A DNA stretch of 64,000 nt from Vicugna vicugna (Eukaryota): positions 197,985 through 261,984 of the forward strand of contig MU057887.1 in the NCBI GenBank assembly GCA_013265495.1. The letters are read 5' to 3'. How positions within the stretch are numbered: position 1 is the first letter of the stretch; the number at the start of each line of letters is the position of its first letter. Made by a program: the position numbers and the translations under genes. Positions 1,972 through 63,364 of this stretch are shown in pieces. The notes beneath the pieces are model-generated. The model saw nothing but the letters and a program-made list of their open reading frames with translations, was not told the origin of the DNA and did not search any database.

Positions 1972-2064
1972 CTGAGGTAGCACTGCCGCTCCTTGCCCGG
2001 CCAACCTCTGCAAGGAGCTGACCTGAGGACCCGTGACAGGCACTGCAGTGATGGTTCCCAAAGC
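1972..2064 (-). CDS. PHF21B: PHF21B coding exon 3 (93 bp): [31 protein letters not shown]
   Basis: Minus strand reads ccctcctctgtcttccag|GCT TTG GGA ACC ATC ACT...CTA CCT CAG|gtaagc. Acceptor and donor are canonical, the exon is phase 0/0, and the peptide matches the recalled PHF21B N-terminal region. Confidence 0.96.
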
Positions 2065-19235: not shown

Positions 19236-21039
19236 CTCGATTATTCCCAACATGAAACCCGGCCCTTAAATTCCGCTGCGAGTTCTAATTATCAGCATTA
19301 GCATTGCTGATCTTCCGCCCGCCCGCTGCGAGCGGCTTCAGAGGCACTGTGGTCCAGCACCGCATCCTTGTGTTAATAAGCTGGAATAAATGAGGCCGCG
19401 CTGAGCAGTGGGGCCCACAGGATGGAGGAACATTTTAATTTCAGATTTGGGGTCTCAAGTTATGAGGGACAACCAGAGGGAGGAGCAGGCCCCACCCCTG
19501 GGGGCCGGAGCAGGAGGCCGAGACGTGGCCCGGGTCAGTCGGGGTGCTGGAGGACGGACGGCGCGGACGGGCCTGGGCTGCCGGGCTGGGCCCTTGAGGG
19601 AGGGGGACTTTCTGTTCAAGCTGCACAGATGCGTGGGCCCCTCATGCCATCCCCACCTGGCCCTGTTTCTGCACACACCCGGGGGCTGGGACAAAGTAGG
19701 GCACAGCTTAGAGGGAGCCCGTCTCATCAGCCTTCACTGAGGGGGGAAAAGAAGGGTCACTCTCAGCCACGACCCCAGCCCTCGGCCCCTCCGAATGCAC
19801 CCGCACCTGTCCCTGGCGCAGCCTGGATGCCCTGGGGTCCCCCAAATGCTGAGGGTAAAAACAATGAAGCAGCAGCACTCAGGAAGGAGAATCAAGAGGC
19901 CACGGAGGAAACAGACACCAACAGCCAAACCGCACGCAGGGCCTGGGACACCTGCTCCCCGAACCGCCCCGCTGGGCAGAGGCAGCGGCAGATGCACGGG
20001 GGCTCCCTGCCCTCAGGGGTCATGGGCCTCCCCCCTCCCCCAACTGGGACCTCCCCCTCCCACCCAGGCTGGGGGTGGGCTGGCCAAACCGGGGCCCACA
20101 TCCTCGCCTGCATCCTCCAGTGAGGTGGACTNNNNNNNNNNNNCTCGATTATTCCCAACATGAAACCCGGCCCTTAAATTCCGCTGCGAGTTCTAATTAT
20201 CAGCATTAGCATTGCTGATCTTCCGCCCGCCCGCTGCGAGCGGCTTCAGAGGCACTGTGGTCCAGCACCGCATCCTTGTGTTAATAAGCTGGAATAAATG
20301 AGGCCGCGCTGAGCAGTGGGGCCCACAGGATGGAGGAACATTTTAATTTCAGATTTGGGGTCTCAAGTTATGAGGGACAACCAGAGGGAGGAGCAGGCCC
20401 CACCCCTGGGGGCCGGAGCAGGAGGCCGAGACGCGGCCCGGGTCAGTCGGGGTGCTGGAGGACGGACGGCACGGACGGGCCTGGGCTGCCGGGCTGGGCC
20501 CTTGAGGGAGGGGGACTTTCTGTTCAAGCTGCACAGATGCGTGGGCCCCTCATGCCATCCCCACCTGGCCCTGTTCCTGCACACACCCGGGGGCTGGGAC
20601 AAAGTAGGGCACAGCTTAGAGGGAGCCCGTCTCATCAGCCTTCACTGAGGGGGGAAAAGAAGGGTCACTCTCAGCCACGACCCCAGCCCTCAGCCCCTCC
20701 GAATGCACCCGCACCTGTCCCTGGAGCAGCCTGGATGCCCTGGGGTCCCCCAAATGCTGAGGGTAAAAACAATGAAGCAGCAGCACTCAGGAAGGAGAAT
20801 CAAGAGGCCACGGAGGAAACAGACACCAACAGCCAAACCGCACGCAGGGCCTGGGACACCTGCTCCCCGAACCGCCCCGCTGGGCAGAGGCAGCGGCAGA
20901 TGCACGGGGGCTCCCTGCCCTCAGGGGTCATGGGCCTCCCCCCTCCCCCAACTGGGACCTCCCCCTCCCACCCAGGCTGGGGGTGGGCTGGCCAAACCGG
21001 GGCCCACATCCTCGCCTGCATCCTCCAGTGAGGTGGACT
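19236..21039. repeat. Near-identical 896-bp direct duplication (19236-20131 and 20144-21039) separated by 12 N
   Basis: The offset is exactly 908. Five substitutions were seen by eye (19526/20434, 19563/20471, 19668/20576, 19784/20692, 19817/20725). Confidence 0.97.
20132..20143. other. Assembly gap (12 N)
   Basis: Run of n in the sequence. Confidence 1.
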
Positions 21040-24000
21040 CGTGGTCCACTGTGCACAGGAGCAGACAGACACGCACAGGGGAGGTATCCGCCTGACCTGG
21101 GGACCGGCCAGCTTACTGTCATTCATGGAATTTAATTTTGTGTTAGTATGTCAACTTCTGAACATTCCAGCTTGTTCCGACTTTTAAAGGCTCAATAAAT
21201 ATTCGTTGAATGAGTAGAGGGATTAGAGAATAATGGCAACTTTGGCCCTTACCGAGGCCCTGCCACATGCCACACAGTCATGATTGTATTTACTCCTTCC
21301 ACCCAGGAGGACACAAAGGGCCAGGAGGCTCAGTGACCTGCCCAAGGTCACTCGGCTTTGAGCCCGTGATCCACGCGGGGGGAATCCCAGAGACCCTGGG
21401 GAGGAGTGCACCAGGGCACCGCCAGGCCCCCTCCCAGTGTCCCCAGGTGCCAGGCCTCCCTGCAAGCTGGGCAGTGCTGGGCTCCTGGGGGCCAGGCGTG
21501 GTGGTAACCCCAGTCGGCCATGGAGCTGGCCTTTGGGGGGCCATCTGCCCGGGTAGGTCAGGGCAGCCTGCCCCTTTGTGCCTCAGGTCCTGCACCCACA
21601 GCCTCTCTCCTCCTCTTCTCCAGCAGGTCTGGCTTCATCTCATCTCGGTCAGAACAGCAATGGGCACAGGAGATGAAGGCAGAAAGACCAGAGGACTACA
21701 GACCCCACGGAAGCTGAGGACGCCCCGATTCTCTGACCTTGTGGTAGACGCGGGGTGCAAAGTGGTGAAACGGGCAACTCCGTCATCCACACAAACAGGG
21801 GCCCAGAGGGCTCAGCCTCGACTCTCACAGCCCGCGCCTCAAAGGCCCGCACTGCACACCTACTGTGTGCCAGGCACAGGGCTGCGGGCGGGCCTTTGGT
21901 CCCGCGGATGGTGACTGACGAAGCTGAGGGCAGTGGGGGCCACACCGGAGCAACGTGGGGTGGGGAGGCCCCGTCCAGCCTTTGGAGCTGCATTCACTCC
22001 TCCGTTGGTTCCCTCCTCCCTCTCTTCATTCTGTATTTTATTCCAGGCATGAATCTGAGGCAGCCTGTCCTCCAGGGGTTCCCAGTTGTGGGGACAGACC
22101 TCCTGCCCTGTTTGTGGGGGCAGAGGGAGTAGGTCACCCGCCCAGAGGAGGGGACAGTGAGCCAGGCCACGAAACAAGGCAGCACGGCGCAGGCAAAGGT
22201 CTGGCAAGGAGGAGCGGGGCCCTGGGAGGCCAGACTCAGGACCCGCATTTGTGCCGAGTGTTCATTCCTCTCTCCCAGCCAGACCCAGGGAAGAGGCAGA
22301 CACTCCTCTGAAACCTGGCCCCGGGGGCTGGTGACACGGAGCCAGGCCCCCGGATGGTGTGCGCTCCAAACCCTGCCTGCCAACCAGCGAGCGGACCCGA
22401 CGCTTGGCCAGGCTGCTGACTCTGGACCCCCGTCGATGGATGGGGGTGAGGACACCATGCTTTTAAGTGGGATGTCCACGTGGGGAGTGTGTCCTCAGGG
22501 CAGCGGAGGAGGAAACAGGCAGGGCTCCTGAGAGCGAGTGAATGAATGAGGGGCTTAGGGGACAGTATTCGCTATAGAAATAAAGTCACGGATGTGGAAA
22601 GAAGGACGCAGGGAAAGGGAGCGTCGGGTTTGGGGTCAGCAGAGTGCTTCCCCGGTGCTCACTCGCTCCGCCCTGTCGCAAGTCCGCCTCTCTGAACCTC
22701 GGTTTCCTCCTCTGTCAGCTGGAGAGATGTCTGCCTCCTGGGGTCACACAGGTATCTGCACGGAGGGCTGACGGTGCACCCAGAAGGTGCTTTGACCTCC
22801 CCCGCCACCTTAACTCCCTGTAAGCTGCTGGCGACGACGCCTCAGTGACATGAGGAGGGGAAAGCCCTCCGCGAGTGTGAGGAGCTGCGGGAGCAGGTTC
22901 CGATCAAGCTCGGTTCACGGGTAGCTCACGTCACGTTGCTCCTGCACCTCAGGAGGCCCCACCTCCCCAGGAAGGCCTGGTGCTCACGGGAGCCAGGAGG
23001 AAGCGGCGGGTGAGCCGGGGTCTGCCCAGGCTCCCCTGCACCCCCTCCCCTGAGAAATGGGGCAACTTTGCTCCGGCCAATGACATGAGGCCCGGTGCTT
23101 CCCACGCAGACACACGCCTGGATCTGCGCCCCTTCCAGCTCCGAGTGGGAACCCGGAGCTTCCGAGTGTCCTGCTCCGTGAGCGCCTGTGGGCCGGTTCC
23201 CAGGCCAGCGGCCGGCAGCCTGGCCCGTGGCCCCGACCCCCGGTCTCTGCTCTGCTCAGGTCTCCTGCACTGGGTTCAGGGCGAAGCACCTCCAGGAGGG
23301 CTGGAGTCGGGGGACAGGCAGTGATGGGGCTCCTGGCAGCCCCTTGTCTTCTGCCACCTGACCAGGCTCCCCCCAGATACTGGTGGCAGGATGGGGGGTT
23401 GTAAGGGGCCCTGCTTACCTCGCCCTTGGCAGGCAGCTGTGGGCAAGCACACGGGGGTGACAGCTGGGACACACCTGAATCTTGGGGCTCCAAGAGGGCT
23501 GGCGTTCAGGTGGGACAGGCGCTCTCCCAGTCCCGGCAGTGAATGGAGAAGACGCTGTAACCCGCACCGGAATCACAGGGCTGTGCCTTCCGCCCGGATC
23601 GCTCTTCCCTCTCCCCCAGCCTGCGTCACCTGTTTATTCATTCCGCGAGGCGGTGGGCTTGGAGTCTTGGGGACACTGCAAACTCTCAGGGCCCACCTTG
23701 TCAGCCCTCAGAGGAGCTGAATAGTGGGTACTCGGTCTCCTGACCCAGCTCCTCACCATTCTGGAGACCCTAGGGTTTTTCTCCAGCCGCCCAAGGAGGG
23801 TGGGGGTGGGTGGGTTGGATGCCAGGAGCCCCCGTTCCAGGCCTGGCTGCGGCCCTGAGCTAGTGCACACTGGGGCCAGAGAAGACTGCCTCCACAGCCA
23901 CCTCCGCGGGGACACCGCGGACGACTGCTAGGGGCATCTGCACCCTGGGACAGGTGGCACTTGCCAGTCAGGCTGCAGTTCTCTAGTTTGTTTTGTTTTA

Positions 24001-35660: not shown

Positions 35661-37554
35661 CCCAGCTTTGACAAGGCACCACCAGAGGTGGATGCGGCAC
35701 CGCGGGAAAGACTATGTGGCCCCGACTCCCAGGGCTGTGCAACCAGCTGAGGAAGACCTAGCCTAGCACTGTGAAGTCAGGACGACTTCTTGGAGGAGGT
35801 GCCAAGTCAGTTCTTAAAAGATTAGCAGGAATAAGTCAGAAGAGCCAGGAAAGGACAACAAAGACAATTATCAGGAACAATACTTTGGACACTGATGAAT
35901 AATCCAAGTCTACGGCTTGGCCGGGGAGGTTGTGTCTCAGGACCCCTGGGCTAAGTTTACCCCTCCTGGCCCAAAAGCACCATGACCTTTGGACTGGGGG
36001 TCACAGCAGTTTTGACGACAGACAGGAGTGAAACATAGTTCCATTCTTGGCTCTGAAGTATTGGTGTGAGATGGTGTAAACACGTATGTGTGTGTGGAGA
36101 CAGGTTTCACAAACATGCTCTGATGTGACCCAAGCCTGCATTCTCACAGACACAACCTGCACACCAGAATGTGCTTGTGCTCCACGGCACCGATCCCCAC
36201 ATCCTTGGGTTTACACCGAGTCTGAACGCTAGACAAATGCACTGCGCCCACAGCTGGTCACTTCCAGCTCCTGTCACCACCTCACCAGCTCTGACTACTG
36301 TGTATGTCAAATCAGGCTGCAAATCAAGGAGAAAGAAAGATAGCTCTTCAAACAGCAGGAATCCTTCCACCCATGCTGGGCTTACAGTTCAAATCAGAGC
36401 TGCCCAGTGTGAATATGATTTAGACTTAATAAGACCAGGGTGGTATATGGAGATACAGATGCCAACCAATTTGTTTCAATTAATATTATGTTTGCCTTGT
36501 TACTGAGAGTTTAGATCATAAAACACCACTCAGTAGCCTATCACTGAACAAATAAATTTTTAAAAATGTGAATTAACAAATGGGTGTTGTTGTGACTGAA
36601 GCAAATACCCCAGGATTTAAAGCTGTGAGAATCCTCAAAGCTCTTCCTGTCAGTCTTTGCCCTCCTCCAGCACGGAGCCAGGGCCTGGCTGGCTCCCCTG
36701 GCCAGATGATCTGCCCCACTGTCACCTCTGTCCTCCAGCCTCCTCTACCTGATCCCCAGCTGCACACATGGCTGAGGCCCTTGCTTTTGACTTCACTGAG
36801 AAAAGAGCAGAGAACTTTCCAGAAGCTGCTGCCACCACCACCTCGTGCATCAAGCCACTCTCTCTAGAGACTGAGGGTCAAGGGTCCAAGCACCTGGCTG
36901 AGACACCTCTGTGCCCTCCACTTGCCCCACCACTGGGAGGCAATGCTGACACCTGTCTGGCCTCGTTCCTCCCCTGCTACCCTGTGGGTAGTCCCGGGCA
37001 GGAAGTACAGGGGGCAGCTGGGCAGGTGCCTTGCAGAGCCGCAGTGGGGATCCTGTCCCCCTGCCCCGTGCCACCAGTCTAGGAAGTGTGTGAAGAGCCC
37101 GGTGACCCTAGTCACCACTCAAGGTGTCCCCCAGATGTCACCTGACTCCCACCAGCAGGACGAATCTTCTCCCACTCTGACCTACTCACCCCAGTCCCCT
37201 TGACGACCCTGTCAACTAATTAGACACTTCAGAGACACGTTTCAGACCCACCTGTGTTGTGGAAAGGCGCCCCCTCCCCTCCGGGAGCACAGACGGTTAT
37301 CTAACCAGGATGACCATTCCCAGACCTCAGGCTGGGTACTACGGCAGCAGCTTCCCTGCTTATCTCCCCCTACAAGGAAGCCAGGAGAGAACTGAGGCTC
37401 CAGGGCCCTAAGAGATATGCCCAAGGCCACATATCTAATAAGTGCAAGAGGCAGGATTCCCACCCAGGACTTCAGGCTCCAGAGCCGACACCTCAGCAAA
37501 GCTGCCCTACGCGGCGAGATGCACCTGCGGCAACGCAGGGGAAGCAGCCCCGCG

Positions 37555-37575
37555 GGCGCTGTCCGTGGTGCTGAA
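37555..37575 (-). promoter_or_regulatory. RE1/NRSE (REST-binding site), perfect consensus
   Basis: Plus strand GGCGCTGTCCGTGGTGCTGAA is the exact reverse complement of the canonical RE1 TTCAGCACCACGGACAGCGCC (21/21). Confidence 0.93.
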
Positions 37576-37628
37576 CCAGCGCGGCGCGGCCGTCCTCCCA
37601 CTGGGGTCTCCAAGGCTCCTTCTCACCT

Positions 37629-37647
37629 TGCCCAGGAGGGGGCGCTA
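37629..37647 (+). promoter_or_regulatory. CTCF-like motif
   Basis: TGCCCAGGAGGGGGCGCTA vs consensus TGGCCACCAGGGGGCGCTA (16/19), with the AGGGGGCGCTA core intact. Confidence 0.6.
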
Positions 37648-37989
37648 ATCGGTTTTGCTTCATTTCCGGAATTCATTTTGGTTAAAAACAAAACTTTAAA
37701 AATGTGGCTTTTATACTACTTTAGAGGGGGAAAAAACCACCTTATGACTTCAGTTTCACAATATGCACAGCTGGCTTCATACACTTTCGACCATGCTGTC
37801 TTCTGAAAGTTACACAACTTTCTTCCTCTATGACAGTGCACCTCTAGGAGATGCCCTGTCCCTGGAGGTTTGATGGCGAAGGACAGAGCCCTTGGCCCCT
37901 GTCTGCCTGTCTAAAGCACATAACCTCACTGTGGGTTTGAGGCAGGAAGCCCTATACCACAGGTTCACTTTTAAAATGTAGGTGTGTTG

Positions 37990-38975
37990 TTATTAAGTCC
38001 TGAAAAGATACTAGAAATGATACAATGTGTGACATTTAAAGAGTAACAATACCACCTGTGTACGAAGTGCCCAGCTTAAGGAAAAAGAATAAATGGCCCT
38101 TCTGACTGAGATGGACCCCATTCTGTCTATGGAGTGTGTGTATACTGAGCGCCCAACCCGCACATCTTGTGGCCCTTTTCTGGCCTTCTGAAGCAGCCTG
38201 CATTCTGTCTATGGAGTGTGCATCTCTCTGAATAAATCTGTTTTTACTCAAAAAAAGAAAAGAAAAAGAATAAATGAACACCAGCTTTGAAATATCCTTG
38301 CCTGCCCTCCCTATTCCCTCCCACATGCAGGTAATAGCTATTTCATATTTATTGTTCTCTGACTTCCCTTTATAGTTTACCAAACACATTTATAAAAACA
38401 TATATTGTTTTATTTTGCATGTTTTGAACTTTATGTAAAGGGACTCATACAAAGCCTTGTTCTGCACCTTCCTTTCTGGACTCAATTACATGTTCCTAAG
38501 TTCACTGTTGTCACTGCACATGGCCTGGCTTGTCCCTTTTCTCTGTCAGACAGGCCAGGCATGTCCCTGTTTATCCAACTCCCCTCAGAGACATCTCAGT
38601 TCTCACCACTTTCGTTTGTTTTGGCTGCTAGAGAAGAGCAGGTCTCCAAGTACACCTGTGTAAGAATTTCTATAAGATATACACCTAGAAGTGGGGTTTC
38701 TGGTCAGGGGAAATGTGTATCGTCAGCTTTACTAGGCGACTCCAAACTGTTTTCAAAATTCTCCAATTTCTGGCCCACAGCACTGCCCAGAGTTCAGGTG
38801 GCTCGCACACTCACCAGCCCCGGGCAGCGTCAGCACCTCCCATCAGTGTTAACCCGACAAGGAGGAAATGGAATCTCACTGAGGTTTTCATGAGCATTTC
38901 CTTGTCTCCTGCAGGGATGAGCATCTTCTCACATGTTCATTAACCAAGCTTTTTCTTTTCTAAGAAGGCTTGTCC
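37990..38975 (-). mobile_element. Old L1ME-like fragment interrupted at 38096-38261
   Basis: Reverse L1 3' text: tttgcatgttttgaactttatgtaaa...atatacacctagaagtgggg...tcagctttactagg...ccaaactgttttcaaa...gcatttcc...gagcatcttctcacatgttcatta. Confidence 0.7.
38096..38261 (+). mobile_element. Retroposed, polyadenylated LTR-derived fragment (MER41/ERV1-like R region) with a 15-bp TSD
   Basis: gaaaaagaataaatg at 38081-38095 and 38262-38276; AATAAA at 38231; A-rich tail at 38250-38261; internal repeat cattctgtctatggagtgtg at 38119 and 38201. Confidence 0.8.
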
Positions 38976-53330: not shown

Positions 53331-55859
53331 AGAACAGTGAACGGGACTGAATGGCTTAAACAACAGGCATCCTGCACAGCTGCGCGGGGGTCGGGAAGAC
53401 CGGGGCCCCGGGGCCCGGGGGCCTGGGGCCACCCCTCCCCACTCAGGGATGCAATTCCAGCTGTGAGGAGGGGACCTGGGCAGGCGCCCTGCAGGGACCC
53501 CTGGCCTCCACATCCTGCGCTTTACGCCCTCAGGCCAAGTCTGGGGGACTTGTGCCCTCAACTTCCACCAAAGTCCACGTTCTAGCTGTGGACACACCAG
53601 TCCGTGGAGACAAAAGCAACCTGGGGTTTCTACCCCGACAGAAAGCCACCGCGGCCTGTCTTCTCCTCCACGGCAGCAGTGCCCCTGGGGCGCCGCCTGC
53701 GTCCTGCTTCCTGAATCACTGGCAATAAGGTTACATTGACAACAGCCCCCCTCTAACGCAGCTGCCCCGCGCTGCGCCGGGAATTCCACCCGGCACGCGC
53801 GACACGAGCGACGCGCGTCCTCGCGGAGCCTCGGGACAGCCCTGCCCGGGAAGCAGCACTAGCCCCGCTCTGACTCAAGGACCCGGACAACCTGCCCTCG
53901 CATCTCACTCGGGGGCTGGGGAGCTGCACACCTCTGAACAAAAACAGAAAAATCCCCCACAGATGGACTTCTTTCTGCTGCGCTTTAACAAGCCCAACAC
54001 AGGTGCTAGGAAGAAAGAATTAGGGGAAAATACAAAAGCAAAGTGCAGCCCATCCGAGACCGTGGGGGACGCCCACCAGCAGCGGTCAGAGGCCATCACC
54101 AGAACGAAGCTGTGTCTCACCACACTCGGGAAACTACTACCAAACGGTAAGTTAAAGACCAGAGGGAAAAAAATTAAGTTAAGGAAGCACGTTTGCTCCT
54201 CTGGAGAACAGAAGCCGCCTCCAAACGAGCAGACGCCTCCACCTTAAGGTATAAACCAACTACAGTGGTAATAATCAAAGGACAAGCCGAGGCGGAGGAG
54301 CTCAGGCGAGGCAGCCCCGACGGAGCAGAGGCTGCAGGAGCATTCGCTTCGGGGTCAGTCCAAGCCTTCCCCCGGCCCCACCCCCGTGACAGACGCAGAG
54401 GCTGGGTGCAGACCAGGCTCCCTCCAAAATCCTGCCATCTTCTACTCGAGCAAAGAACTCCCACTCACCATGAACGGCTGCTCGTTTGCTGGTGGTTCTG
54501 ATGCGCTAACTCCATTTCCTTCTATCGGAGCACGTGCCCTGGACTTAGATGACACACCCAACTATGCAGACATGTGACACAGTGTGTTGTCACGTCTCCC
54601 CGACGTGCGCCAGCACAGGGGCTGAGGTCTGGGAGCCACTATGGCCCAGAACTGGACCGCAGCTCCTCCAATCGCCAGCTGTGTGCCGCCAGCAAGCCAC
54701 TCAGCCTCTCTGGGCTTCAGCCTCCTCTCAGTTAAAATGGAAACTAAGAGCAGGCCTTCCCCAAACGGCGGTGTGCATAGTGACTGAGCTGGTCCACGGA
54801 GAGCACAAGAAGGGGCCTGGTCGGCAGCAGAGGGGACAGCGGTGACCTGTGATGCCCAGGTCCCTCTTGCTGAGGACCTACCAGGGGCCCGGGGATCCAC
54901 GGACCTCACTTAACCCTCCTGGCGCCGTTTCCTGAGCGCCTCCCACCCACGGCGCTCTGCTGTCTGACGTTTGATGCCTGTTCCTCCCATCTCCCAGCCC
55001 GGGGAGCGGGGAGCCGGGTTTACCACGCCAGTCTGTCCAGTTTTAAAGCCTGTGCTTAGCCTCTTTCTCACGTTCCTCTCGGAGACAGGAGTTAAAAGCC
55101 TTCTCAGTGGCACTCCTCTGCAAGGAAAGTCACACCCAGAGTCCCAGCTCCTTGAAAGCTGTAAATTCCCAACAGTGCGGGGAAGACAGCAGGGGCTTCA
55201 CCCTTCCTCCAGAAAACCGCCTCTCCCCCAAAGTCCTCCGCGTCTGAGGCAAGAGCCTTGGAGGACGGGCCAACAGACACCTCCAGAGGGGCTCCCTCCA
55301 GCCCCTCCGTGTGTGACCGGGGGTTCCCGAGACGCTGCTCCTCGGGCAGGAACGCCACTAGCTCAGGCCCCGAGACGGGCTCCAGCACCGGCAGGCGGAC
55401 CAGGCAGCGGCCACGTTCAGCACCACCGCCCACAAGTGGAGTGAAAAACCACAGCGAGCCCACAACTCGGTTCCTGAACAGACAAAGGCACTGGAGGAAA
55501 AACTTGCTAAATCACGGGGCTAATCGTCATAGCCAGCGGCTCTAATGAGGCGTCCTGGGATTACCAAAGTTATTATCAGAGTCGTCTCACTGAAAAAATT
55601 CAAAGTTAATTGAAATCAGTTGTACAGTTGCGACAGCAGGTGTTTTAAGAGGCTAACATATCAAAGCCAACTCCGTGGACAGGGAGAGGAGGCAGCACGG
55701 TTCCCAACAACCAGAAGTGACAAGCAACGCCACCCGAAGGGAGACAAGCCACAGGGCAAAGGCTCCAAGACTGTCCCCCCCACCCCACCCCCGGTGTAGG
55801 GCGGGCCTCTCCCGGGGTCACCATGCAGCGCACACACCCTCTTCAAATCAGCCCCTTTG

Positions 55860-59619: not shown

Positions 59620-62600
59620 CTTCCACACACCAGCGTGGCCTGCAGCTCTCACATAAGGCTCTTCTCACTCTATGGTGAAGTGAACTCGCCTGAAGTTCAG
59701 GTCTGAAGATGCCCGCTTCACATGGCATCTGAATGTTGTCGTGAGAAATCCAAAGAGGGAGGCAAAAACCGTTCAGTATTTATGATGGGCCTGCTATTCA
59801 CATGGCAGTGCTTGTTGCTTGACAATTTAGATAAAAATGTTACTGCCTCTCTGCATGTGCTGCAAATTCATGGCCTAAAACCACTGGAGCAACTAATGGA
59901 GTCTTCACACATCATATCTTGTTTAAGACGAGGGGGTCCATCCTCCACTGAGATCACAACCCAGTGGTGAGGTGCTGTCACATCTGAGAATGCAGCCTGG
60001 CCACGGTGGGCTGGGCCACAACGCAGCTCTGACCAACTGCCCCATATCTCCCTTTTTTTTTTTTAAGGAAAAAATATAAACTCTGTTTCTGCATAGCAAG
60101 GTCCTATAGAAGCTGGTTTCCAGTTTATCCCCTAGGCCACCAACAGTGGGAGAAACTCCGGCCAGTTACACAGTTTGTGTCTCTCTGCGTCTGACCAACA
60201 AACAGCCTATCTACTTCTAGCGTCCTTGATGAGCGTCTTTAAGCACTTGTCCATGTTTCTAGAAGTAACTAAAAACATTCCAGTGCCAAGGGCACATATG
60301 GGAGATTGATGGCAGGGCAGCAAAAGATATTAACTCACTGCTATTGTATGTCTAACAAATGTGGATGATGGGGTCATCCGTTCATTTTACTACAGCTCAT
60401 CATCCACATGTGCACTTTTAATTGAAACCTGACCTTTCCATCCCATATTCCAAGTGGGAGCAGCACAAAAACACATCTCCAGAGGTGAAGATGGTGTTTC
60501 TCCCCAGGCAAGTCTCCAAAGGGACACTACCTTTACTTTTACATTGAGTTAAAAACAAACTCTGAAATACTGGCTCCTTCATTCCTGACCCTACATTTCA
60601 GCTCCTCATAGGCAGGTGCTGGAGTGACAGAGCAGAGCCCACGGCTCCTCTTCAAGACCCTGAGGGCAGCCCCCATCACCTCAGAGAGCTTACTCAGCGA
60701 CCTTTCCCCAGCCAAGCTGCCAATCACCACCAAACTCTCCCAACGAGAGAGAGACAAGTAAATGTTAAGTCTACCCAACTCGTTTTATAGGTGACCTCTG
60801 GAAGATTTCACCGCAGAGCCTGGAAGAGACAGGGCTGCTTTATTAGCATGCTGCCTCACGGCCCCAGCCCCTCCCTCTCGCTTTTATGAGCCCTTGCTAT
60901 ATAAAATGCCACAAAGGGAAAAGGAGAAACAACACACTTACACTGGCAAACACTAGTTCCAACAGTCAGGACAAACCCTGGCTGCTTACCAGATGTTATT
61001 TTCAGTCATTTAAAAGAAATATTTTTAAAGGCCAGAGAACAAAAGTTTTTGTTGTTTTCTTTCTTCTTAAACATACACTCACACACACAAAAAGATGGAG
61101 GTACATTCCGTTCACAAGCATCCTTCCCCGAGTTCAAATTTAAAGGCGAAGGCAGTCGGGAGTAGGGTAGTTCCTTCCCCAAGCGGCACCACAACCTTCA
61201 AGCACGATTTTCAAACGTTTCTCTCTTCAGCCTCATCTAAATTCAGGCATGACAGATAATAAATAGCTACTCATTTACTATCACCATAAAAATTTAAACA
61301 GCCTTGAAATAGTTGCTAAAATACAGAAATGATCAAACCTAAGCTCCGAAAAGCCACTCCAAATAGTAAAACTATTGCCACGAAGAAGCACACATAAAGA
61401 GACATTGTTGCGATAAAAGCTGCTGGATTATTGGATTTTCTCGCTCTCTCTTTTAAATCTTCTACTCGGAGCGTAAGAGTCAACAACTTGCCGTTTTACC
61501 CGATGAAAAAAGGGCTTAGTAACCCTCAGCTATAACACTGTACCAGATTTGGTGGTGGATTTTTTCCTTTTTAAAGAAAGTACCTGATTCGATTCTACAC
61601 AGTGATTAAACATCTTTGTGCTCAGCGGAGAAGGGTCTTCCAACCCCTCCCCCTCCAAAAATGGCATCAAAGCAATCAAAATGGTAATGCCGGGCCTGGG
61701 TCCCCTCCCCCCGCGAACTCCCCGACTTCGCCGGGGCCGCGCGCCGGGCCCCCCTCCGGCGGGAATGGAAGCTTCCACTCCTGGACGGGGGCGCGGGCCG
61801 GGCGGGCGCGCGCGGCCGGGGAGGGGGCCGCGGCACCGCCAGAAAGGGGTTAATAAGCATTCGTCCCAACCCTCCCGTCCAGCCGGGCACCCCCGACCAG
61901 GCGCAGACCCGCGGGAACAGCCATCTTTCTTTCCGTAACCCCCGGCCCCCTCCTCTTTCGCACACCCCCTCCCACCACTTTTCAACTTTAAAGACTCGAA
62001 ATGAACACCCGGCCTCCGAGTTCTCCCTCGCCAGGTTCGCCGCCATCCCCTCCAGTCTCGTCCACGTCTCTCCCCGCAACGACATTCCCTCGGGGGAGGG
62101 GGCTTCTGATCAGGCCGGGGCGGCCCGGAGTTGGAGGAGGAAGGGGACAGATCGGCCGCCCGGGCGGGGGCGGGGGCGGGCACTGGCCAAGTTTGGTGCT
62201 GACGGCGGCGGCCGGCATTCCGAAGGAAGCGCGATCGATGGCCTGGGGGCTCGGCGGGGCGGGGGCGGGCCGGCGGGGCTGGCGGAGGGAGGGGAGAGGG
62301 CAGCGGGGAGGGCGCCGGCGCCTCCGCCCCCGCCAGCCTCGGAGCCCCGAGAGCGCCATTGGCTGCGCCGCTCAAAGTTCTCGGCTCCGGGCGGCTCGGG
62401 GAAGGGGAGGGAGTGCGAAAACCCCTACCGCTGAGCTCAGCGCAACTAAGTCACAATGGACAACTTTTCCTCGCCAAGGGTCCAGGAGGGGGTCTGCAGC
62501 AGAGCCCCCCACCGCGAGAAGCTTCTCGCGTGTCCCAGTCTAAACCTGACGCCCAGAGACCAAAGTTGGGGCAAAACTGGGGGGTCCTTGGGGCGCCTTT

Positions 62601-63111: not shown

Positions 63112-63177
63112 TTGTTTGTCGCTGAGCGCGGCGATCCGCGTCTGCCTCTCGTGAAGCTGTTTCTTGAGGTCGCCGTT
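63112..63177 (-). CDS. PHF21B: PHF21B coding exon 2 (66 bp): [22 protein letters not shown], N-terminal coiled-coil segment
   Basis: Minus strand reads cccgtgtttccgcag|AAC GGC GAC CTC AAG...GAC AAA CAA|gtaagc. It matches recalled PHF21B (paralog PHF21A has [22 protein letters not shown]) and splices in frame to 2064. Confidence 0.96.
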
Positions 63178-63346: not shown

Positions 63347-63364
63347 CTGTGGCTGCCGCCTCAT
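63347..63364 (-). CDS. PHF21B: Coding part of an alternative PHF21B first exon: MRRQPQ (5' UTR extends to higher coordinates)
   Basis: Minus strand reads ccccgATG AGG CGG CAG CCA CAG|gtaagc with a strong donor. A 169-bp intron (63346-63178) joins it in frame to exon 2. I recall a human PHF21B isoform starting MRRQP, not verified here. Confidence 0.8.

Follow-up and report, generated by a model that had tools for sequence, protein, structure and literature searches.

A perfect REST-binding motif in intron 2 of camelid PHF21B and its probable role in repressing a paralog of a REST corepressor subunit

The stretch analyzed here (the window) comprises 64,000 nucleotides of the Vicugna vicugna genome and is taken up largely by the second intron of PHF21B. 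Immediately to the left of the window lies an exon that matches PHF21B of Camelus and Vicugna over 116 residues with 100% identity, and tblastn placed coding exon 2 at 63112-63177 (minus strand, 100% match with camelid PHF21B) and coding exon 3 at 1972-2064 (minus strand), which leaves 2065-63111 (61 kb) as intron 2. The coding part of an alternative first exon lies at 63347-63364 (minus strand) and gives the N-terminus shared by P0127, P0129, and P0132; by tblastn, exon 1 is found immediately beyond the right edge of the window and the PHD exon ~16 kb beyond the left edge. PHF21B is described in the literature as a reader that is required in neural stem cell differentiation and is linked to depression and social memory.

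Intron 2 contains a canonical RE1/NRSE on the minus strand at 37555-37575, matching the consensus at 21 of 21 positions and consisting of two half-sites with a 2-nt spacer. Exon 2 is 25.5 kb away and the exon-1 ATG 26.5 kb. The site is the sole match in the window when up to three mismatches are allowed, compared with an average of 0.05 in shuffled sequences. The chance expectation of an exact 21-mer in 64 kb is 2.9e-8 with uniform bases and 6.2e-8 with the composition of the window. Throughout the 2.03-Gb camelid genome, five perfect copies were found, as were 65 matches to a looser 20-mer (strong RE1s), and the reversed-motif control gave none in either search. The segment carrying the RE1 and the nearby CTCF-like motif is single-copy in the genome at the sensitivity of the repeat search used, and an old interspersed repeat with 74 to 76% matches elsewhere in the genome (37382-37480), which we take to be MIR-like, ends about 75 bp to the left of the RE1. 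The presence of the RE1 in PHF21B intron 2 is confirmed, and there is a high probability that it is functional. A search of metagenome contigs, a collection poor in mammal DNA, returned no instance of the RE1 and CTCF motif pair.

Several other features were observed in the course of these scans. At L054 and L055 (G000:C8717), two RE1s with identical motifs and immediate flanks lie 12.9 kb apart, probably as a result of local duplication. A retroposed insert of ~170 bp with a 14-bp target-site duplication and an A-rich tail occupies window positions 38082-38276, 0.5 kb right of the RE1 element. At 19236-21150, identical copies 908 bp apart flank a gap of 12 N (20132-20143), likely an assembly artifact.

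The RE1 is surrounded by a halo of 14 CpGs at 37510-37592, 12 outside the motif and 2 within it. Stretches of 83 bp with at least 14 CpGs occur at five places in the window (three of them within the promoter island, a fourth at 53735-53873, and the RE1 halo itself), against an intron median of 2. With 12 CpGs within ±50 bp compared to 1.1 per 100 bp in the far flanks, the site displays local CpG retention without being a full island. The same comparison was made for all 65 strong RE1s, 59 of which lie outside islands. CpG density within ±50 bp exceeded that of the far flanks in 54 of the 65; the 59 non-island sites had a median of 5 versus 1.1 CpG per 100 bp (Wilcoxon p = 7e-9), and at least 12 CpGs were reached by 16 of the 65. 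Since the excess recurs in 54 of 65 sites and 16 are as CpG-rich as the one in PHF21B, the halo is a general trait of RE1s, and we rejected the view that the CpG patch is a special feature of the PHF21B site. The halo at PHF21B is presumably the germline footprint of long-term REST/CTCF occupancy, arising through protection from methylation and deamination. The patch at 53735-53873 constitutes a second CpG-dense region of intron 2, with up to 17 CpGs per 83 bp and no RE1 by scan, and is a possible regulatory element.

Starting 54 bp past the RE1, a plus-strand motif at 37629-37647 matches a consensus that we take to be that of CTCF. By the orientation rule for CTCF motifs, it faces the PHF21B promoter. 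When the consensus of the CTCF core was fixed beforehand and up to one mismatch was allowed, the core was not enriched in the window (six matches versus 3.67 expected; 17 of 100 shuffles reach six). With a degenerate 18-mer consensus, widened after the site had been seen, 37629 was the only match with zero or one mismatch in 114 kb. Two of the 65 strong RE1s, that of PHF21B included, have a core with up to one mismatch no more than 150 bp away, where ~0.01 is expected per site, and the pattern widened to fit the PHF21B site was found near 0 of the 64 others. The sole other strong RE1 with a core within 150 bp is L025. Between 60 kb and 84 kb, neither pattern detected a reverse-strand (convergent) motif, although degenerate patterns can miss weak sites. 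With no convergent partner found at the promoter, looping through CTCF is unsupported, and a loop is made less needed by the second of the conserved REST peaks described below, which lies near the promoter. An E-box (CACCTG) at 37522-37527 on the plus strand is probably incidental. The window holds 107 copies of this hexamer, or 0.33 per 200 bp, and we rejected the E-box as part of the module on account of this chance-level frequency and because segment 37483-37550 is not alignable in the run from a distant mammal considered next. Our recomputation agreed with the layout given in the original prediction, namely, a 21/21 RE1 at 37555-37575 in intron 2, ~26 kb from the promoter and with a chance expectation of ~3e-8 under uniform composition, 14 CpGs in 37510-37592, a CTCF-like motif 54 bp after the RE1, and an E-box at 37522. 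A role for the E-box and looping of the REST site to the promoter found no support.

The segment around the RE1 was aligned against 4 of 24 listed sequencing runs, of which X12 and X15 inform on variation among camelids. Run X12 had 0 substitutions over this segment and may be near its source. Run X15, which at ~96% likeness is probably another camelid, had no change in the RE1 or the CTCF motif, a weak result given that zero changes in 40 nt has a p of 0.21. More divergence was seen in one contig of run X20 (animal fecal RNA from a more distant mammal), in which 37415-37482 aligned with changes at 10 of 68 positions and 37551-37665 with 11 changes and one gap; the 68 bp between the two pieces (37483-37550), including the E-box, were replaced by 66 unalignable letters. 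Nine of the 11 substitutions fell in 37582-37610, between the RE1 and the CTCF motif, and the two others, near the ends of the piece, are unlisted; hence, the RE1 has at most two changes, and 37611-37643, the region of the CTCF motif, has no listed change. Four of the five CpGs right of the RE1 were altered. When the motifs were compared with the rest by Fisher's test, p was 0.009 at best and 0.17 at worst, depending on where the two unlisted changes are placed. We do not treat X15, X17, and X20, whose RNA contigs cover the element, as evidence for an enhancer RNA, which contigs cannot show, and these runs had been chosen for containing the segment.

REST binding at PHF21B and its consequences are documented in published human and mouse tables. 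Conserved REST peaks in embryonic stem cells (ESCs) are listed at hg19 chr22:45,371,457-789 (score 5379) and mm10 chr15:84,829,436-787 (score 2981) (Rockowitz and Zheng 2015, PMC4499139, Table S2), together with a second conserved pair on the promoter side, 32.1 kb off in human and 24.5 kb off in mouse (scores of 646 and 123), and two further peaks in mouse only. In part 56 of 95 of that table, counted by hand, the main human peak is the top one of the 33 conserved chr22 peaks and the 11th of 148 rows. Phf21b is among the genes changed in REST-knockout mouse ESCs, with no direction given in the table (PMC4499139, Table S7); only 39.9% of the genes changed in those cells were REST bound (PMC4499139). 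According to the tables of Wagoner 2010 (PMC2883591), PHF21B rises 12.6-fold in HEK-293 cells after REST knockdown and at least 2-fold in HEK and MCF10a but not T47D cells (two of three human lines), is enriched in REST-less tumors, and has an intronic RE1 whose 17 letters are the first 17 of the camelid site; the main text of that paper never names PHF21B. One supplement of the mouse knockout paper PMC4371837 has no Phf21b entry, and the main text of a bioRxiv paper on REST in the hippocampus does not mention PHF21.

Judging by gene, intron, motif letters, and spacing, the camelid RE1 appears to be orthologous to the main human and mouse peak, and REST presumably occupies it in camelids as well. 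A candidate for the second peak is a spaced pair of RE1 half-sites at 62179-62202 (minus strand; exact left half, 6-nt spacer, and right half with one mismatch), the only such pair found, which lies inside the promoter CpG island, 24.6 kb from the RE1; we consider it a candidate because the corresponding distance between the two conserved peaks is 24.5 kb in mouse and, in human, 32.1 kb. These data agree with the expectation of REST peaks at the corresponding human and mouse site and of a rise in PHF21B upon REST loss. Repression of PHF21B by REST, probably through the RE1, is supported by the peaks at the inferred orthologous site and by derepression in two of three human lines, with T47D, where the increase did not reach 2-fold, as the exception. 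The site, an ordinary though very strong RE1, and its effect on PHF21B are thus largely known, having been tabulated for human and mouse in 2010 and 2015, whereas the REST-PHF21B circuit is not spelled out in the literature searched. We found no text on that circuit or on a PHF21B microexon in that literature, subscription journals and splicing databases being outside the search, and no paper that discusses the PHF21B RE1 or deletes it.

What PHF21B does once expressed bears on how the site should be read. Phf21b is induced at neurogenesis and is bound to Lsd1, Hdac1/2, and Rcor1/2/3 (Basu 2020, PMC7462064). Its expression declines again after neurogenesis (PMC7462064), and REST is therefore not its sole control; the available portion of that paper contains no link of Phf21b expression to REST. 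The original prediction had PHF21B taking the place of PHF21A as neurons form. Phf21a is absent from the Phf21b immunoprecipitation (IP) lists accessible in PMC7462064, but this means little, since the in-vitro list has 12 entries and lacks Hmg20a/b too. Total PHF21A increases through neuronal differentiation, with a switch to a neuronal isoform that carries a microexon instead of the AT-hook and keeps its binding to LSD1, CoREST, and HDAC2 (Porter 2025, PMC11864812), and the PHF21A complex is likewise present in neurons (Nagai 2024, PMC11605454). Further, pull-downs of PHF21A from cortex at P0 were enriched for Phf21b (log2FC of 1.65 and 2.16; one peptide, below the authors' cut-off; PMC11605454), which could reflect either co-residence or antibody cross-reaction. 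Phf21a is unchanged in Phf21b mutants, and an activating role has been argued in the adult hippocampus (Chin 2022, PMC9431697). Judged by these papers as far as they were available, the two proteins share a core complex and are not reciprocally expressed. The addition of PHF21B to LSD1-CoREST-HDAC alongside PHF21A fits better than an exchange, and the swap is contradicted by a PHF21A that rises in neurons and stays with LSD1, CoREST, and HDAC2.

The two paralogs are asymmetric with respect to REST. The camelid PHF21A locus (200 kb) has one RE1-like site with three mismatches, no site with fewer, and no half-site pair, and the REST peak table of PMC4499139 has 0 entries for PHF21A. From the REST peaks and derepression at PHF21B, its co-purification with LSD1, HDAC1/2, and RCOR1/2/3, and the lack of a comparable RE1 in PHF21A, we conclude that the complex represses a paralog of its own subunit, as had been proposed from the sequence at the outset.

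A further feature of PHF21B is a 23-nt exon that precedes the PHD exon (L007:5259-5281, minus strand; G000:C1013:183259-183281). It is paralogous to the 23-nt microexon of PHF21A, located in the camelid genome at G000:C11001:2229992-2230014, 73 nt ahead of the AT-hook exon, which is 164 nt long; the two 23-nt exons share 17 of 23 letters, the same phase, and the same gene position. Both acceptors carry TGC at -6 and -28. UGC near the acceptor marks microexons of the SRRM3/4 type, and SRRM4 controls PHF21A-n. No AT-hook exon was found in the 1015-nt PHF21B intron behind the microexon. Skipping of the PHF21B microexon alone causes a frameshift and a stop six codons into the PHD exon, while skipping it together with the preceding 55-nt exon keeps the frame, as seen in 3 of 120 homologs. 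A full PHD match is missing in 25 of the 120, five of which end at the skip product. The skip product was also found in 6 of 20 further cluster members, including the named human isoform 3 (302 amino acids; 46 Logan contigs), and once more among 53 short matches; the truncated records are partly automatic gene models. PHF21B of birds and fish has an 8-residue segment of microexon size. Conserved REST peaks are present at both SRRM4 and SRRM3 (PMC4499139), whose products drive neuronal microexons (PMC13388176), and a decrease in Srrm4 in PC12 cells left the Phf21a microexon unchanged (PMC13388176). An RE1-like site with two mismatches lies on the plus strand in the L007:183134 region of C1013, 125 bp from the PHF21B microexon, and may be due to chance.

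On balance, we think it probable that the perfect RE1 of intron 2, likely with a weaker promoter-near site, keeps PHF21B low via REST until neurogenesis and that PHF21B then adds to LSD1-CoREST-HDAC. REST would likely bind the RE1 in camelids, and the two sites, likely jointly, would hold PHF21B low in non-neural and stem cells; as REST declines at neurogenesis, PHF21B would be released and would enter LSD1-CoREST-HDAC complexes alongside PHF21A. The upstream trigger of PHF21B is probably REST, acting via the very complex that PHF21B then joins. Which of the two sites represses is a matter of inference, and we favor the intron 2 RE1 over the promoter-near site. It could instead be that the RE1, though strongly bound by REST, serves as an insulator-like or bystander REST/CTCF site and that PHF21B is repressed via the promoter-near site or indirectly. 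The 25 kb separating the RE1 from the promoter, the second conserved peak, and the low share of REST-bound genes among those changed in knockout ESCs would suit this reading, and yet the intron peak is far stronger in both species (5379 versus 646 and 2981 versus 123; PMC4499139) and the RE1 has been kept as a perfect motif, so that we regard it as unlikely. We have greater doubts about the originally proposed switch, in which REST reaches the promoter by a loop through the CTCF site and, as REST declines, PHF21B replaces PHF21A in LSD1-CoREST. A CTCF motif so close to a strong RE1 is rare, faces the promoter, and looks conserved, and Phf21a is missing from the Phf21b IP lists; against this stand the rise of PHF21A and the LSD1, CoREST, and HDAC2 binding of its neuronal isoform, the single Phf21b peptide in PHF21A pull-downs, the brevity of a list that omits Hmg20a/b as well, and the empty reverse-strand scan for CTCF motifs over 60 to 84 kb. 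That the RE1 is a chance or repeat-derived motif without function is scarcely credible: the old repeat ~75 bp to its left is the one point in favor, whereas a chance of 6e-8 per window, the empty reversed control, the single-copy segment, and the conserved human and mouse REST peaks at the inferred orthologous site (PMC4499139) all argue against it.

Another reading would add to the preferred explanation rather than replace it. REST might repress both PHF21B transcription and SRRM3/4, which inclusion of the PHF21B microexon would need; we offer this tentatively. Because loss of the microexon brings a frameshift and a stop before the PHD, it is possible, though we would not count on it, that full-length PHF21B is restricted to neurons and acts like AT-hook-less PHF21A. 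The likeness of the paralogous exons in letters, phase, and acceptor TGCs, the PHF21B intron without an AT-hook exon, the skip products in human and other mammals, the segment in birds and fish, and the conserved REST peaks at SRRM4 and SRRM3 speak for both parts. Conversely, the PHF21B exon could be weakly constitutive, several of the truncated records are automatic gene models, the SRRM4 dependence and the UGC rule come from general background, and the Phf21a microexon did not respond to a decrease in Srrm4 in PC12 cells.

Taking these elements further, we speculate that PHF21B could be a hard-wired neuronal-type PHF21 that retained the ancestral neuronal microexon, is without an AT-hook exon either through loss or from the start, and is held under a double REST lock composed of the RE1 and a frame-breaking microexon that needs SRRM3/4; a fall in REST would then, in one switch, convert PHF21A to its AT-hook-less form and release PHF21B. 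Were this so, all LSD1-CoREST readers would lose DNA binding when REST falls, and the corepressor of REST itself would be rewired. The paralogous microexon would also mean that studies of PHF21A-n and of LSD1 complexes in neurons, REST-less tumors, and neuroendocrine cancers are missing a redundant AT-hook-less reader.

Exchange of BAF53a for BAF53b is a familiar mechanism among neural complexes. REST-controlled neural subunits are represented by ACTL6B/BAF53b (nBAF) and CHD5 in the same REST-knockdown table as PHF21B (PMC2883591), and MYT1, like PHF21B, has a conserved REST peak (PMC4499139). Within the PHF21A complex, BRAF35 and iBRAF are reciprocally expressed (PMC11605454); for a genuine exchange, the level of the old subunit would have to drop, and that of PHF21A does not. 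Compared to the neuronal microexon of PHF21A (PHF21A-n; PMC11864812 and PMC11605454), PHF21B carries the paralogous exon of 23 nt and lacks an AT-hook. In PHF21A, the microexon and the 164-nt AT-hook exon are alternatives that both stay in frame, whereas PHF21B has no alternative exon and lone skipping breaks the frame. The short CpG-retaining patch centered on the camelid motif, known from CpG counts, resembles REST/CTCF low-methylated regions, as do the patches at most strong RE1s. The closest counterpart is the human and mouse PHF21B REST peak (PMC4499139 and PMC2883591), which is intronic in the same gene and shares the same 17 letters and a similar spacing to a second peak; there, a strong conserved ChIP peak and derepression on REST loss have been reported, whereas the camelid site is known from its sequence.
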